Below, one piece after another: positions 8,121 through 13,815 of a stretch of DNA of 30,084 bases. A program made the position numbers and the translations under genes. The DNA is from a virus (lineage: Duplodnaviria > Heunggongvirae > Uroviricota > Caudoviricetes). The stretch lies in the IMG/VR virus record IMGVR_UViG_3300036945_000956; one strand, written 5' to 3'. Numbering within the stretch: position 1 is the first letter of the stretch; every line of letters starts with the position of its first letter. The notes under the pieces are model-generated. The model saw nothing but the letters and a program-made list of their open reading frames with translations. It searched no databases and was not told the origin of the DNA.

Positions 8121-8921
8121 TTACGGGCCATTCGTTATTTGTACAATATAATCCCAATCATCTTCAAAGTTGATGTTTGCATATGCTACTGTGTTATTAA
8201 TATTTGTAGTAGGTAGTCCATTTACAGTAAGTCCAGGTTGTACTTGAACTACTTGAACTGCTGTATTAGAATCAAGACTGGAATACAGATTTGTTTTTGC
8301 AAATTTAATTATTTTCTTTTGTGTCACTGGACCAAAGTAATAAGCTTTCATTGTAAAAGTAAGTGTCCAAATCAATGCACGTCTTTGTTCAAATGATCCT
8401 TCATAAGTATCTTCCATTGAAATATTATCTAATACAATTGGAATATCAAAATATTCATCAATGTTATCTAACAATTTAACAGAAGGTGTAAAGTCTGGTT
8501 TAAAGAATGGAAGAATTTGCTCAACAATTTTTGTACCATCTTCTTGAAATTTAGTCATAATATTCAATTGAAACGTAATGTTATAAGGTGCTGGAGTGTA
8601 TGATGTATTAAACGATGCATCATTTGAGGTGATGTTTTTGGAATATCTACTCATTGGTGTTAAATTACGAGAAGGATCATAAGATATGTTAATCATCTCA
8701 AATGTAATTCTTGGAAGTGTAATTTGTGGTGCTGTCAAACTTGGATCTTGTTCAAGTCTTGCTAAAAACTTTTGCATAGGTCCATAATTAATAGGAACCG
8801 TCATTGTTTGAATAGTTGATCCTGCATTATCCTTACGACTTATTTTGATAGCATTAAAGAGAGTACCAAATACTGCTACATAACGTCGAGTTGTCTCATT
8901 ATAGAATTGATTACCAAACAT
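8121..8921 (-). CDS. gp15: Tail terminator/sheath stabiliser
   Basis: Motifs FYNETTRRYVAVFGTLFN, VPINYGP, LPRITFE and EQILPFFKP. Confidence 0.95.
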   Translation of the reverse strand: MFGNQFYNETTRRYVAVFGTLFNAIKISRKDNAGSTIQTMTVPINYGPMQKFLARLEQDPSLTAPQITLPRITFEMINISYDPSRNLTPMSRYSKNITSNDASFNTSYTPAPYNITFQLNIMTKFQEDGTKIVEQILPFFKPDFTPSVKLLDNIDEYFDIPIVLDNISMEDTYEGSFEQRRALIWTLTFTMKAYYFGPVTQKKIIKFAKTNLYSSLDSNTAVQVVQVQPGLTVNGLPTTNINNTVAYANINFEDDWDYIVQITNGP

Positions 8922-8935
8922 TTTATTCTATATCC

Positions 8936-9595
8936 TTAAAAATTTTGTTCACCAAACGGATTCAGTTCACTGAAGTCAATGATAGAATCTGCAACTGTTT
9001 CAATAGTAAAGTTATCGGCCATTGCATCAAATGCTTCAACATTAGCAATAGCAGAGTTTGATGTAAGAACATATGAATTAAACAATGTGTCAATCTCAAG
9101 AACACCAGTACTGAATCGTTCTTGTGAATATTCAAATAGTTCACAACGTAAGTCATATGTCTGTAATTGACCCATCTGATAGAAGATTGCTTCATGCTCA
9201 ACAAATTGTACTTCAAACATTTTACGATTTAATGGAAAGTAAATTAAGTCACCTTCATTTGGTCGAATCTGTTCATCATATAAAGCAACATCTTGGGCAA
9301 ATTTTCTCATTGCAATAGTAAAGGTAATTGTGTCACTGATTCTTAAGCCAAACTTAGATAAGAAGTCACCATCACCACCAAAGCTATCAACGTTCTTAAT
9401 ATAAGCTTCAATCATGAATGCTTTGGTAAATGTTGATAAGTCATCTTCATTTAACAATTCATCTTTAGCAACTAATGTTCTTGGGATATACCAAAGATCG
9501 TGGCCATAAACACGAATTGACTCAATGATCAGATCCTCAATAAGGTTCTGTTCACCTGAGTTTGAAAAGTTTGAGAAATAGAAGTTGGTAGCCAT
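8936..9595 (-). CDS. gp14: Neck protein
   Basis: Motifs EQNLIEDLIIESIRVYG, SKFGL and PNEGDLIYFP. Confidence 0.95.
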   Translation of the reverse strand: MATNFYFSNFSNSGEQNLIEDLIIESIRVYGHDLWYIPRTLVAKDELLNEDDLSTFTKAFMIEAYIKNVDSFGGDGDFLSKFGLRISDTITFTIAMRKFAQDVALYDEQIRPNEGDLIYFPLNRKMFEVQFVEHEAIFYQMGQLQTYDLRCELFEYSQERFSTGVLEIDTLFNSYVLTSNSAIANVEAFDAMADNFTIETVADSIIDFSELNPFGEQNF

Positions 9596-9600
9596 GTAAA

Positions 9601-10344
9601 CTATCCGATCATGTCGTATACGGGCAAGGAATATGACGACAACATTTCTTGTTCCATCTTTGTAAGTTCTTCCTGAGCATCGCCAAGAATCTTTTCACCA
9701 TTGAATTGAACACCGCCAGGAAGTTGCATACCAGAGAACTTGGTAAGATTTGAACCCCACTGATATTTAATCTTAGCAGTTGCATAATTCTGCAACCAAC
9801 GGTCTTTCCATACCTCAGCATAAACTGATGGATCAACAATCTGATATGCTTCAACAATGATATAACTACCAACTGCTAGTCGTTCCCAATTAGTATCAAT
9901 GTAAAGTTTATTCACATTTCTATTATAACGAATTGGTTGTTTTCCGACCAGCATTTGTTCCATAAACTGAATATGTTCCATTGCCATATAGAAATGGAGG
10001 AATTCAAAGTTGACCAATTCATATAGATTATTGAGAACAAATTGGTACTGAACATTAAACATACCAGAACCGGTAGAAAGACTTGATGACAAATCAAAAA
10101 TACTCACAACACCAATGATATTTTCTGGTATTGTAATATACTTGTTTGTTATATCTTGACTTGTGATCTGATACTTATAATATGTTCTTTCGGTACCATC
10201 AAAATGATAGTCATACCAATAATGTAAAGCTTCATCAATACGGTCTTCAACTTGATCATCATCTACGTTAATCTCAATAACTGGTTTACCTAATTTACGT
10301 AGGCAATATTCTTTGAATTGACTTCTTGTTGTAGGTATTGCCAT
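9601..10344 (-). CDS. gp13: Neck protein (head-tail adaptor)
   Basis: Motifs KEYCLRKLGKPVIEINVDDDQVEDRIDEAL and KYQWGSNLTKFSGMQLPGGV. Confidence 0.96.
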   Translation of the reverse strand: MAIPTTRSQFKEYCLRKLGKPVIEINVDDDQVEDRIDEALHYWYDYHFDGTERTYYKYQITSQDITNKYITIPENIIGVVSIFDLSSSLSTGSGMFNVQYQFVLNNLYELVNFEFLHFYMAMEHIQFMEQMLVGKQPIRYNRNVNKLYIDTNWERLAVGSYIIVEAYQIVDPSVYAEVWKDRWLQNYATAKIKYQWGSNLTKFSGMQLPGGVQFNGEKILGDAQEELTKMEQEMLSSYSLPVYDMIG

Positions 10345-11015
10345 TATACTGCCCTCTTTAATCTACCAAAAATAAAATCATTGGGTTTATTTTCAGGTAA
10401 TGCAAATGTTTCTAAAATACCATTATTAAACCATTTTTTACCACTTGGACCTTTAGGTCTATTAGTCGACATTTTTATTTTAGCTTCTTCACTTTGAACA
10501 CGACCTCTGATTTTACCAAGTCTTTTTTCTTTATGTTCTTCACTTTGAGTTACACCATAATGTGGAGAAAGAATCCCTTTTTTACCATACATTGGATTAT
10601 TTTTTCCAACAAATGTACCATTTTTAATTCTTGTTTCTGACATTTTTGTTTTTGAATATTCAGAATGTTTAATATGTTGTTTTACGTTCTCATACAATCT
10701 ACTGTTAATGTATCTATTAGATTTACCTTTCATACACATAACTGCCCAAACCATTTTAGACTTTTTATCACCAACAAGCATTTTTGTGAGCAATATGTGG
10801 CATATAAAATGTTCTCTTGCAGTTAATATAACAATATCATCATTTGATCCGCCAAAAGATTTTGGTATAGAATGATGTTTTTCAACATAAAAATCAATGT
10901 TATGAGAATCCCAATTACGTTCAATAGCTTTATCAATAATAGAAAAATACCAAGTAGTATACTTGTTACGTAGACACCATTCTTTAAACTCAGTTCTTGT
11001 TGTCGGTTGTGCCAT
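10344..11015 (-). mobile_element. Free-standing HNH homing endonuclease with NUMOD3 repeats; N-terminal 16 aa duplicate the gp13 start
   Basis: HNH-type core YVEKHHSIPKSFGGSN..ILTAREHFICH. NUMOD3-like HSEYSKTKMS, QSEEHKEK and QSEEAKIKMS. C-terminal KKWFNNG motif. AGGAGA RBS. Confidence 0.88.
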
Positions 11016-11039
11016 AACGCTCTCCTATCATTTATTAAG

Positions 11040-11047
11040 TATTTATA
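11040..11047 (-). promoter_or_regulatory. T4-type late promoter TATAAATA upstream of the endonuclease and gp13
   Basis: Exact match 25 nt upstream of the ATG at 11015. Confidence 0.85.
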
Positions 11048-11056
11048 TCACACCGG

Positions 11057-11296
11057 TTAAGCCCATACTGCCCTAGGATTCTTTGGTATAACTGAATATT
11101 CATCAAGTGCAGTTAAATCTACACTGCCATCCGTCTTAAGGTTAATATGCCAACCTTCAACACCATGAATTTTACCTAACTCTATGAGAGTATGCACATG
11201 AGATGCGTTAGATATTTCTCCATTTAAAGCAAACCCACATTTGGACAATGCTTCAAGCATTTCTTCTCTTGAAATAAATTTTAGATATCTAATCAT
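11057..11296 (-). CDS. Small protein accompanying the spike gene (possible chaperone)
   Basis: ATGA overlap with the 840-aa gene. The GWHINL...P.NP.AVWA ending is typical of small ORFs that follow such fibres. Confidence 0.65.
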   Translation of the reverse strand: MIRYLKFISREEMLEALSKCGFALNGEISNASHVHTLIELGKIHGVEGWHINLKTDGSVDLTALDEYSVIPKNPRAVWA

Positions 11297-13815
11297 CTGT
11301 CACCAATGAGTGTAAGGTCAGTTTCATTGTTTATAAAGTATGGTATATATATTATTCTTTTTATTCTGCCGTGCATCCAACGATAATTAGAGATTGTTCT
11401 AATTTGGAAACCGATACCAAGTCTATCATAAGGAGTATTTACATATAAATTTATACCACCCGAGACATTAGGATTATATAATGCTTTGTTGATGCCGGTA
11501 GTATTTAATGCGCCATGAGCCTTTCGACCATATACGGTCACGCCTTTAAATGCACGATTAGTTGCATCATCATAACCTACGCCACCTGCAGGCGGATTAT
11601 AGAATCCAACAAAGTTTCTTTCATCTAATCTAAAAAAATCACTAAAAGAGTTGTTATTAGATGTGCCGACAGATACCATTACTTGGTTATCGGTTGAGCC
11701 AGCTTCGCCTAGAATATCAAATTCTGCGTAAAACGTACCCTCTCTTTGATTAAAGAATTGATCAAACGTAGGGTTAAATATTGCTGTAAAATCTGTCCCT
11801 CTTGAAGATGCAACTCCAGTGGTAAATATTGGAGAAGTCATAAATGTTCCACCTTCAAGTTGCATATAATCAACAACTACAGAATCATTAGCATTCATGA
11901 TACGAATACCAATTGACGGATTCGTAATACTGGCGATTAATGATATTCGTTTCCATTTATTTTCTTCAACTGGCATAGTGGTCCATTGAGTACCATCAAT
12001 TGTTAACTGAATATTACCAGAACCAGTTAATCTTTTAATATAAACAGACGCAGTAACACTACCCGAGCCTGTATATAGTTGAGTGACTGTTGCATTATCA
12101 GTATCAGCGACCAACCTACATGCTGTATTTGTGATTCCATCTAAGCCAATTTGATCTCTAAAAACTGACATATTTTGCTTAACCCATACGGTGTTGGTTA
12201 AGTCTCTACACCATTGCGCATAATTGATTCGACCTTCTTCTATAAGAAGTCCATTACTTGTAGTTGATATATTTTGATCATAAGCAGCATATGCATACGA
12301 TGCTGCAATATATGGAGTTGCTACTGATCCTTCTTCAAATTGTATACCAGATACATATGCAATTATAGAATTAGTTCCAGTATATGTTGTATTGCCAGTA
12401 TCATCAGCACCCAATATCATAAACCAGTTAGTACCACCGCCAATGAATGATGTTGTTAAACTGATACGATATACATTATTTCCAAGTGATTCTACAGAAC
12501 CAGAAGTAAAATTTCCGACACCACCGCTTTGAGTAAACACTAAACTATTTGGATTATCAAAATCAAATTGGACTTGCTTAAACGGTGTGCTTGAATATTG
12601 CCTAATAAATAGATATCTTCTGCCAGCGCGTTTAAAAATTAATGAAAATGTTGTCGGATCTGTTGGCCATGGATCAAATCCATCAAATGTATTTCTACCA
12701 ATTGCAAAATAATGTTCAGATGTAGCGGTAGTGTCTTCAGTTAAAGCAAAAAACGGCAAGTTTCCATAAATGGTCGAAATAGTTTCGGTCGGCGTAGTTT
12801 GCGCTGTTAGTCTAACTCCTGCACGATACGAACCGAAACCAGAAAAAGATCGTGTCGAGTAGTCTTCGCTAAATGTTATAAGATTTCTAGCCTTGATTGT
12901 AGTTGGATTTGAATAATCATAACGTGGAACAGATATTACAGCATTTGTTGGGGTGAGTTCCGATTGCGCACCCCAGATATACATACCCGAAACGCCATCT
13001 CCAGTGTATCCGCCAAAGTTATAACTATTCGGCGCTGCAAATGAATTTGTTATTCCAATGGCAGCGCGCTGATCTCCTAGTGGACTATTCACTATTGCGG
13101 ATATTCTATACCAACCGTCGGCAAGAGGTGTTATACTTCCTCCTGCTACTGAGTTCTGTATACCATCACCACGAGTTGTAAATTCTTGTCTTGCTAAATC
13201 ATAAATAATCCATGACCATCGCGTCAAACCTGCACTTCTCATACCAATGTAAACATATCGTTTTTGCCCACCAGATATTTCTTTGACAAAAAATGATATG
13301 GTGTTATTAGGACCAGCACTAGTAACACTACCAGCATTAATTAACGCTTCAGTAATAGCCCCGCTAGATTCTGTAATTCTTGTTGCCTGTGATACACCAT
13401 CTGGCGCTAAAACTGTCGGTTCAAATGCAACAGTTAAGCCAGTTTTATTCCAACTTGCATCGACAAAGTTTTGCGAGTTTAAAAATCTATTAACAGTACC
13501 GACTGATGAAGTTGTCACCTGATAATCAAGTGGTGGATCAGAAAAAGCTGTTTTAAGTAGCCCATCTTTATCAAAATATGTTGCGCTGCTAAAACGACTA
13601 TAGGTAAGAGCGTCCATCACTCTACCTTGACCCTTACCTCTTACAAATCCGCGATCATTTGCAAAATCTAAATCAAGAGTAGAGTTTTGTGTTGGCCAAG
13701 TATTAGACCAAACTGCCGCATTCATTAATCGTCTCGTCGTTGGTCCTCGAGAAAGCCCTGCAGCCACTCGTGCATCATATGTTACCTTTGGACCATAAGA
13801 GAGTTTGCCATCCAT
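11293..13815 (-). CDS. Large spike/fibre protein with three repeated carbohydrate-binding-like jelly-roll modules
   Basis: Motifs LDLDFA..SRFSSATYFDKDGLLKTA, PRYDY and GLLIEEGRIN. Three modules end in WGAQSE, GIQFEEG and YMQLEGG. Confidence 0.7.
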   Translation of the reverse strand: MDGKLSYGPKVTYDARVAAGLSRGPTTRRLMNAAVWSNTWPTQNSTLDLDFANDRGFVRGKGQGRVMDALTYSRFSSATYFDKDGLLKTAFSDPPLDYQVTTSSVGTVNRFLNSQNFVDASWNKTGLTVAFEPTVLAPDGVSQATRITESSGAITEALINAGSVTSAGPNNTISFFVKEISGGQKRYVYIGMRSAGLTRWSWIIYDLARQEFTTRGDGIQNSVAGGSITPLADGWYRISAIVNSPLGDQRAAIGITNSFAAPNSYNFGGYTGDGVSGMYIWGAQSELTPTNAVISVPRYDYSNPTTIKARNLITFSEDYSTRSFSGFGSYRAGVRLTAQTTPTETISTIYGNLPFFALTEDTTATSEHYFAIGRNTFDGFDPWPTDPTTFSLIFKRAGRRYLFIRQYSSTPFKQVQFDFDNPNSLVFTQSGGVGNFTSGSVESLGNNVYRISLTTSFIGGGTNWFMILGADDTGNTTYTGTNSIIAYVSGIQFEEGSVATPYIAASYAYAAYDQNISTTSNGLLIEEGRINYAQWCRDLTNTVWVKQNMSVFRDQIGLDGITNTACRLVADTDNATVTQLYTGSGSVTASVYIKRLTGSGNIQLTIDGTQWTTMPVEENKWKRISLIASITNPSIGIRIMNANDSVVVDYMQLEGGTFMTSPIFTTGVASSRGTDFTAIFNPTFDQFFNQREGTFYAEFDILGEAGSTDNQVMVSVGTSNNNSFSDFFRLDERNFVGFYNPPAGGVGYDDATNRAFKGVTVYGRKAHGALNTTGINKALYNPNVSGGINLYVNTPYDRLGIGFQIRTISNYRWMHGRIKRIIYIPYFINNETDLTLIGDR

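Follow-up and report, generated by a model that had tools for sequence, protein, structure and literature searches.

The usual view of homing endonucleases is that they gain access to essential genes only within self-splicing introns or inteins and otherwise keep to the spaces between genes. The gp13 locus of an uncultured T4-like phage from fresh water raises the question of how such an enzyme could occupy the front end of an essential gene by neither means. We analysed a 30,084-nucleotide (nt) stretch of this phage (IMG/VR virus record IMGVR_UViG_3300036945_000956; hereafter the window), from a viral contig of 57.9 kb that is an estimated 34% complete, in which an endonuclease gene directly precedes gp13, the neck protein gene, and begins with a copy of the gp13 start. 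We consider it probable that a Mob-type HNH homing endonuclease lodged after codon 15/16 of gp13 as a unit consisting of the endonuclease core and a replacement gp13 5' end of about 30-45 codons, that the resident expression signals thereby passed to the endonuclease, that gp13 restarts downstream of it, and that the unit spreads by homing. The comparative data described below show the anatomy of the locus, a fusion shared across the enzyme family, a resident and a foreign copy of the gp13 start, a patchy distribution, a recent transfer and the scars of loss.

Anatomy of the locus and the endonuclease family

Every gene of the gp13 region is encoded on the minus strand, in the 5' to 3' order 840-amino-acid (aa) tail protein, 79-aa open reading frame (ORF), endonuclease, gp13, gp14 and gp15. 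The 48-nt starts of the endonuclease (10968-11015) and of gp13 (10297-10344) are identical at 38 of 48 nt and at 12 of the 16 encoded residues, exactly as an original prediction made from this DNA had stated, and in a scan of all 48-mers on both strands of the window the runner-up matched at only 26 positions (mean 12.6, standard deviation 3.0). In a repeat search, the two starts formed the top direct repeat of the window (61 nt, 75% identity, spacing 671), and alignment bore out the claim that their similarity breaks off abruptly after CTACGTAA. Both sets of expression signals that had been described were also found: the endonuclease has a T4-type late promoter and an AGGAGA ribosome-binding site (RBS), and gp13 restarts through a TAATG overlap, in which base 10344 is common to the endonuclease stop and the gp13 start, with a Shine-Dalgarno sequence 7 nt from its ATG inside the last codons of the endonuclease. 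The promoter motif occurs six times in the window, always on the coding strand and in five of the six cases just upstream of an ORF start, and the copy in front of the endonuclease would now drive a leader-endonuclease-gp13 transcript. The elements of the locus are as follows.

11040-11047, minus strand: T4-type late promoter TATAAATA, once that of gp13, and left edge of the conserved module (from the sequence and the homology edge at 11048)
11021-11026, minus strand: AGGAGA RBS, 5 nt upstream of the endonuclease ATG, at the position of gp13's original RBS (direct reading)
10344-11015, minus strand: endonuclease ORF, 223 aa (ORF calls)
10968-11015, minus strand: leader, the displaced resident gp13 codons 1-16 (MAQPTTRTEFKEWCLR), now the endonuclease N-terminus (repeat, homologue alignments, clade markers)
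10344-10967, minus strand: Mob-type HNH/NUMOD3 endonuclease core, from NKYTTWYF, with stop TAA at 10344-10346 (PHROG, Pfam, tblastn, ratio of nonsynonymous to synonymous divergence, dN/dS)
10352-10358, minus strand: AAGAGGG Shine-Dalgarno sequence of gp13, within the conserved C-terminal ..GRLKR.. codons of the endonuclease (direct reading)
10297-10344, minus strand: copy 2, the working gp13 codons 1-16 (MAIPTTRSQFKEYCLR), not of the type of the gp13 body's own clade and carried with the endonuclease (repeat and clade comparison)
10250-10344, minus strand: probable co-converted tract, gp13 nt 1-94, travelling with the endonuclease (comparison with the related contig L084)
9601-10344, minus strand: gp13 neck protein (head-tail adaptor Ad2), complete, 247 aa (tblastn, PHROG 211)
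about 10250-11048, minus strand: whole mobile unit in the window's lineage, comprising promoter, leader, endonuclease and replacement gp13 5' end (homology boundaries)

An assembly artefact is ruled out, because the same arrangement recurs at 97-99% identity in contigs of three other freshwater runs (X3, X5 and X7) and also in the IMG/VR contigs L084 and L002. In tblastn comparisons, the gp13 of the window matched the neck proteins of Stenotrophomonas phage DLP_6 (64% identity) and of Sinorhizobium phiM12/phiN3 and Caulobacter Cr30 (51-55%), among others. At the nucleotide level, megablast found nothing similar to the region among cultured phages, and the endonuclease-gp13 layout is absent from the cultured phages of the collection, in which the best protein matches are below 40% identity and lie elsewhere in the genomes.

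The endonuclease matches PHROG 655 ('homing endonuclease') at E=2e-35 and the Pfam family PF07460 (NUMOD3) at E=3e-4, with 21.1 bits against a cut-off of 20.4; the NUMOD module lies C-terminal to the nuclease, and PF07460 is found in many homologues too. It is 33-38% identical to annotated MobE/HNH endonucleases of T4-like phages (tblastn, E down to 5e-22), in alignments that start only at residue 17-19. An alignment of 29 homologues shows no variation at H47, H48, E68, H69 and H73, and relatives of the enzyme carry PF01844 or PF14279. Judged by these matches, the enzyme is a homing endonuclease of the T4 Mob type (HNH/NUMOD3), and we take it to be free-standing because the locus has no Rfam intron match, an endonuclease stop codon of its own and a complete flanking gp13. 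Its dN/dS is 0.09-0.17, and it is under purifying selection.

A search of 5.8 billion proteins returned 221 homologues, of which the best 120 were used for the analysis of leaders and trees. Among these, all close homologues (42-98% identity) have a gp13-like leader joined to a core beginning NKY[ST]xWYF, and the distant ones start with M..F[LI][DNQ]NKY or MNKY, that is, 1-5 residues before NKY. In a tree built from the core only, the leader-bearing proteins form one clade of 56 rows, with a Shimodaira-Hasegawa-like approximate likelihood-ratio test (SH-aLRT) support of 99, and 53 leaderless rows stand apart; the search for HNH proteins with gp13-like N-termini suggested by the original prediction thus recovered a clade of at least 56 metagenomic homologues, almost all of which begin with such a leader. 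Most leaders are about 12-17 residues long, others 21 (ending ..LGKP), 34-37 or 49, with about 43 residues of the longest corresponding to gp13 codons. The longer-leader forms are nested within the short-leader clade of the core tree, and the 21-residue junction recurs in separate endonuclease subclades (P0007/P0013, P0017 and P0044). Three long-leader endonucleases (P0011, P0016 and P0022) are labelled PF26809 (Phage_T4_gp13) in precomputed Pfam annotation, on account of 43 gp13 codons.

Viral contigs, metagenomes and assemblies together supplied the genomic context of 22 distinct loci. In all 22, a complete gp13 follows the endonuclease directly from codon 1, with a junction that is either an overlap of 1-13 nt or a gap of at most 9 nt, and a terminal duplicate of gp13, of about 12 to 43 codons, flanks the endonuclease. 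A gp13-like N-terminus lacking an adjacent gp13, an arrangement that had been named as contrary to the proposal, was seen in none of them. The upstream genes vary from locus to locus and include glycosyltransferases, tail fibre genes, holin and lysin, heme oxygenase and others. The leaders mirror residues peculiar to the gp13 lineage of their own locus, as with RRLGYP in locus L252 and RTLGKP in L088. The endonuclease is present in 4 of 159 surveyed gp13 loci and is scattered on the tree of gp13 bodies, which implies at least 9-11 changes (gains or losses).

Native and foreign copies of the gp13 start

Which of the two starts is ancestral can be read from a pair of close relatives, L086 with the endonuclease and L007 without it, whose gp13 bodies are 96.6% identical at the nucleotide level. 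The L007 sequence from -38 (TATAAATA) to +44, which covers the promoter and codons 1-15, equals the leader region of L086 at 81 of 82 nt, and the similarity ends inside the Leu15 codon; upstream, homology breaks at the late promoter too. The working gp13 of L086 differs from that of L007 by 37 mismatches in nt 1-135 (27%) and by 3 in nt 135-420 (1%). Because the L007 start equals the L086 leader and the L086 copy-2 start is divergent, L086 received the endonuclease with about 45 foreign codons; on this comparison it is an L007-like genome that gained both. Simple deletion from an L086-like allele would not have produced L007, whose nt 45-135 are unlike copy 2 of L086. The ancestral start thus matches the leader and not copy 2, and the claims that the element took over the expression signals of gp13 and that it brought a replacement 5' end, seen here as the foreign first 135 nt of L086 gp13, both hold for this pair. 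In the long-leader class, the endonuclease-free L257 agrees with L256 at 110 of 123 positions of the leader and at 98 of 123 of copy 2, and in L255 the two types are mixed as a patchwork. For most other loci, the nearest endonuclease-free relatives have at most 78% nucleotide identity, too distant for boundaries to be read, and Mantel correlations between core, leader, copy 2 and gp13 body are all positive owing to two deep clades, leaving unseparated which copy tracks which partner.

The window itself shows a corresponding mosaic. On the tree, its gp13 body falls into a clade of 14 members (SH-aLRT 97), and most of those that lack the endonuclease have Q3 and W13. The window leader carries these clade markers; the working start shows I3, Y13, Y55 and Y56, as is usual in other clades. 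Expressed as similarity to its own clade versus others, the body is nearer its own clade (63.2 vs 58.2%, p=2e-4), as is the leader (13.0 vs 10.8 of 16 residues, p=3e-4), and the first 60 aa of the working gp13 are further from it (72.6 vs 78.1%, p=0.0014), all three p-values ignoring shared ancestry.

The endonuclease of L084 is 98% identical to that of the window at the protein level. Homology between the two contigs starts at -33, exactly at the promoter; from there through gp13 nt 94 they differ at 14 of 798 nt (1.8%), compared with 51 of 646 nt (7.9%) in the remaining gp13, and the stretch made up of the final 52 nt of the endonuclease and gp13 nt 1-94 is free of mismatches; this tract of low divergence again agrees with a replaced 5' end. 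Synonymous divergence (dS) is 0.056 for the endonuclease and 0.325 for gp13; as read from these values, the endonuclease unit was transferred recently. Contigs of X3, X5 and X7 carry the module at 97-99% identity and all lose homology at 11048. Because L084 and the contigs of these three runs share such limits of low divergence or homology, we place the mobile unit at about 10250-11048.

The late promoter is also a sharp mosaic edge, beyond which (11049-11300) L084 and the three-run contigs are unrelated to the window, and exchange of the upstream cassette (tail or fibre genes) seems to proceed separately from that of the neck module. No joint that skips the endonuclease occurs in the contigs examined from four DNA runs, and no near-identical empty allele was found among them; a search for an empty site that started from the 79-aa upstream ORF recovered no relatives of this ORF among viral contigs. 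Contigs of other phages that reach at least 80% identity, from four metagenomes, are by far most numerous on window positions 10212-10312 (gp13 nt 33-133), with a summed depth of up to 818 vs 5-30 nearby. This is the most nucleotide-conserved part of gp13, as expected for the target of a homing endonuclease.

Traces of loss were found as well. L303, which lacks the endonuclease, keeps the last ~30 nt of its ORF (..IGRLKRNVV*) right before gp13 (1468-1500); the remnant preserves the gp13 Shine-Dalgarno sequence, the gp13 start equals copy 2 of an endonuclease-carrying relative, and the sequence further upstream is G+C-rich and unrelated, so that the locus reads as a deletion scar. L257 has a leader-like 5' end that becomes copy-2-like from about nt 84, and this looks like the pattern expected from a crossover between the 123-nt direct repeats. 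Together, the deletion scar and purifying selection (dN/dS ~0.1) fit a cycle of gain and loss. In L309, promoter, RBS and gp13 codons 1-22 are duplicated 1.4 kb upstream (47-185 and 1440-1566) with no endonuclease; the intervening DNA contains a Gly-rich fibre-like ORF of 317 aa and a small one of 85 aa, the upstream copy ends after 10 unrelated codons, and the junction (..LGKPV|) coincides with that of the 21-residue leaders. An endonuclease-free gp13 in L004 (4001-4048) has an in-frame TAA at codon 12 (MAQPTTRTEFT*WCLR), which may be a sequencing error or a broken allele in the presumed target zone.

The genes around the locus in the window are the following.

11293-13815, minus strand: 840-aa tail protein
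11057-11296, minus strand: 79-aa ORF
8936-9595, minus strand: gp14 (PF11649)
8121-8921, minus strand: gp15 (PF16724)

The gap between gp13 and gp14 is a second hotspot for homing endonucleases (L086:3966-4679, L248:4448-5194, L250:3490-4419 and L257:1457-2284). It holds GIY-YIG ORFs (Seg-like, ..KYGFVYIW..YYIG..) in three loci and a different Mob-like HNH gene (35% identity) in L257 and L258. That these gap genes use the same leader device at gp14 was ruled out, as the GIY-YIG ORFs begin with their own N-termini and none with a gp14-derived leader. An extra 614-616 nt, coding for a 202-aa ORF (MKSFKTFILEAKEG..DIDDTLFH, with a HAD-like motif), separates gp13 from gp14 in the close relatives L084 (2462-3070) and X5 and X7 contigs; the window, at 9595-9600, does not have this ORF. 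Within gp13 itself, members of a cyanophage-like branch (L090, L091 and L176; 339-340 aa) have an internal insertion of about 90 aa relative to the window gp13, and the tblastn matches of S-CAM9 and S-8S56 gp13 are split in two pieces over about 1.1 kb.

A possible route into gp13 and its rivals

The arrangement suggests how the element could be expressed and how it could move. Late transcription from gp13's old promoter would give one mRNA, on which ribosomes would start at gp13's old RBS and ATG to make an endonuclease with a 16-residue gp13-derived extension; gp13 would then restart at the TAATG by translational coupling or reinitiation, aided by the embedded Shine-Dalgarno sequence, and splicing would not be needed. 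During mixed infection, the enzyme would cut an endonuclease-free gp13 within about codons 16-45, and the break would be repaired from the endonuclease-carrying genome. Its right end would pair with the donor gp13 body, and its left end, after resection, with the promoter and leader (~80 nt). We assign this role of left arm to promoter and leader because the sequence upstream of the promoter is unconserved between phages: in five comparisons, upstream homology ends at the late promoter, and promoter plus leader are the only left-hand homology. The donor's first 30-45 gp13 codons, lying between endonuclease and break, would always be co-converted, and arrival of the element would leave the resident gp13 promoter, RBS, ATG and first 16 codons upstream as the signals and leader of the endonuclease. 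The founding fusion probably arose by one-sided, microhomology-mediated repair, because the junction falls in a Leu codon common to gp13 (..C-L-R) and the endonuclease (..F-L-D-NKY).

We lean, with some reserve, towards a more specific version, in which the clade is specialised in replacing the gp13 5' end: the donor's 30-45 codons would be resistant, the stranded start would serve both as the endonuclease start and as the only left arm, the junctions at 15/16, 21/22 and ~43 together with a recoding of Arg35 would mark the cut or recognition zone, and the repeats would allow exact excision and hence a reversible invasion. The Arg35 codon is CGN in 71 of 79 endonuclease-free gp13 alleles. A synonymous change from CGT to AGA, often followed by ATA GAC in place of ATT GAT, is found in 7 of 13 main-clade endonuclease-linked alleles vs 4 of the 79 endonuclease-free ones, and the long leaders, which are native copies, keep CGT.

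Several observations weigh against the proposed invasion. Self-immunity needs explaining, because copy 2 restores an intact gp13 5' sequence; it is the weakest point of the proposal, with the Arg35 recoding as the sole lead, and this recoding cannot be the whole basis of immunity, because copy 2 of the window keeps CGT. Cleavage and its position, the self-immunity of copy 2, translational coupling and the leader's role as a homology arm are all steps that we infer from the sequences. A single endonuclease-plus/minus pair (97% in the gp13 body) is close enough for boundaries to be read; the nearest endonuclease-free relative of the window has ~69% protein identity, and its mosaic leans on clade statistics that ignore kinship. 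Because leader and promoter lie inside the low-divergence unit shared by the window and L084, the leader can also travel with the element, and it may best be seen as a homology arm of donor, recipient or mosaic origin (compare L256 with L255). Regarding the enzyme, the window endonuclease matches Pfam NUMOD3 and not Pfam HNH. Its AlphaFold model (predicted local distance difference test score 75.8) gave no Foldseek match in the PDB at E<=0.001, the weak rows below this threshold being of HNH type (pyocin DNase, Cascade-HNH, McrA), and a profile search of PDB sequences with the endonuclease gave 0 hits.

Some of these points would suit a different history, in which an ordinary intergenic endonuclease captured its N-terminus once, leader and endonuclease inserted between the RBS and ATG of gp13, and the downstream gp13 is wholly resident. 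The leader-bearing endonucleases do form a single clade, the window/L084 leader and promoter share the low divergence of the endonuclease, and the Mantel tests fail to separate this history from the invasion of gp13. We nevertheless regard it as unlikely, given that the start and promoter of L007 equal the leader (81/82) and the working start of L086 is 27% diverged over 135 nt, that copy 2 and ~60 codons of the window are of non-clade type, and that the low-divergence tract between window and L084 extends 94 nt into gp13; leaders with local gp13 residues, as in L252 and L088, are likewise unexpected after one ancient capture followed by drift.

It is highly improbable that gp13 is made from the first ATG and that the interval is taken out as a group I intron, as an intein or by some other process acting on RNA or protein. 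In-frame fusion of an endonuclease to its upstream exon is common in organellar group I introns; here, however, the whole window gave no Rfam intron match at E<=1, intein blocks are absent, a stop codon closes the endonuclease ORF, and gp13 is full length from Met1, has its own Shine-Dalgarno sequence and aligns from residue 1 with ~160 endonuclease-free homologues. Splicing from codon 16 would, moreover, strand a second set of codons 1-16 inside the 'intron', and the complete gp13 in 22 of 22 loci agrees with the original claim of insertion by neither intron nor intein. The element could also be a decaying or domesticated passenger with no present role in mobility, its duplication being a one-off recombination scar at the boundary of a hypervariable cassette. 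The upstream genes change from locus to locus, a mosaic boundary lies at the gp13 promoter and 5' end even where there is no endonuclease, and L309 has its duplication round a fibre-like cassette. Against this stand an ORF intact in at least 56 cluster representatives with dN/dS 0.09-0.17, an endonuclease dS six-fold below that of the flanking gp13, and a patchy distribution with loss scars, hallmarks of an active homing cycle, which make the passenger explanation very unlikely.

Known systems and significance

The nearest known relatives are the T4 MobA-E proteins, free-standing HNH homing endonucleases that carry out intronless homing with co-conversion of flanking genes (PMC2988022; MobE, PMC2790892). 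T4 Mob and Seg genes, in which embedded promoters are described, lie between genes or split a gene into two polypeptides, as with mobE in Aeh1 nrdA and mobA in gene 39/60 (PMC2988022). The window enzyme resembles them in its 33-38% identity to MobE-like proteins, its HNH core with NUMOD3, its free-standing form and its place beside an essential conserved gene, and further in the use of a host promoter, the overlapping start and stop with its neighbour, an expression signal of the downstream gene inside the endonuclease ORF, co-conversion tracts (L086/L007 and window/L084) and patchy distribution. Unlike the Mob and Seg genes covered in that review (PMC2988022), it continues in frame from a second copy of its target's 5' end and brings a replacement 5' end. 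Illegitimate events have been documented in T4 intron homing (Parker et al. 1999, cited in PMC2988022); going by the review's citation of that work, they share with the gp13 fusion good homology at one end (here the gp13 body) and a microhomology joint at the other (here the shared Leu codon), and differ in being a laboratory system with introns, in contrast to the stable, widely inherited in-frame fusion seen here.

Two eukaryotic systems follow the same logic at the other end of the gene. In yeast, WHO ('weird HO') elements substitute a 3' end of their own for that of FBA1, and the end that they carry gives resistance; cleavage and resistance were shown by experiment, and the displaced native fragment was proposed to act as a homology arm when homing next occurs (Coughlan et al. 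2020, PMC7282813). As with WHO, an essential gene is invaded without splicing, the unit consists of an endonuclease and a replacement gene end, the displaced native end is left as a fragment, and gene conversion would be allele-specific. The end replaced is the 5' one here and the 3' one in WHO, where the displaced fragment is unexpressed and decays, whereas the gp13 fragment, with its promoter, RBS and ATG, serves as the translation start of the endonuclease. WHO enzymes are intein-like LAGLIDADG proteins with a zinc finger, acting in a eukaryotic nucleus; the window enzyme is an HNH protein of a phage, known from its sequence. The mobile ORFs (mORFs) of fungal mitochondria form hybrid genes in Allomyces macrogynus atp6 and in Glomus atp6, atp9, cox2 and nad3, bringing a foreign C-terminus and leaving the native one downstream (PMC3630166). 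They share with the gp13 element an endonuclease ORF in phase within a coding region, a foreign end on the working gene and a native end duplicated beyond the ORF; the gp13 case is their mirror image, N-terminal instead of C-terminal and HNH instead of LAGLIDADG or GIY-YIG. An mORF follows the host gene to which it is fused; the window endonuclease instead follows the orphaned native start, and its host gene would be restarted by translational coupling.

The original prediction had presented this as a splicing-free way to invade an essential gene. The structure that it described stands, but the claim of a new principle was overstated, as the same logic is already published for 3' gene ends in mORFs and WHO, and the gp13 element is its mirror image at a 5' end in a phage. 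In the part of the literature that we covered, we found no report of a phage endonuclease joined to a second copy of its target's 5' end.

The finding means that a large natural phage family takes a third route into an essential gene, beside introns or inteins and intergenic sites, by replacing the front end of the gene and recycling the orphaned promoter and start codon. It extends the principle of WHO and mORFs from eukaryotic 3' ends to the 5' ends of genes in prokaryotic viruses, where polycistronic translation permits the restart. For annotation, the N-terminus of such an endonuclease is a gene fragment, and long-leader forms are labelled gp13 by Pfam; for phylogenetics, the first 30-60 codons of the marker gene gp13 can have a history separate from the rest. 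The locus also bears on mosaic boundaries at late promoters, and its allele pairs form a concrete set for predicting new HNH specificity.

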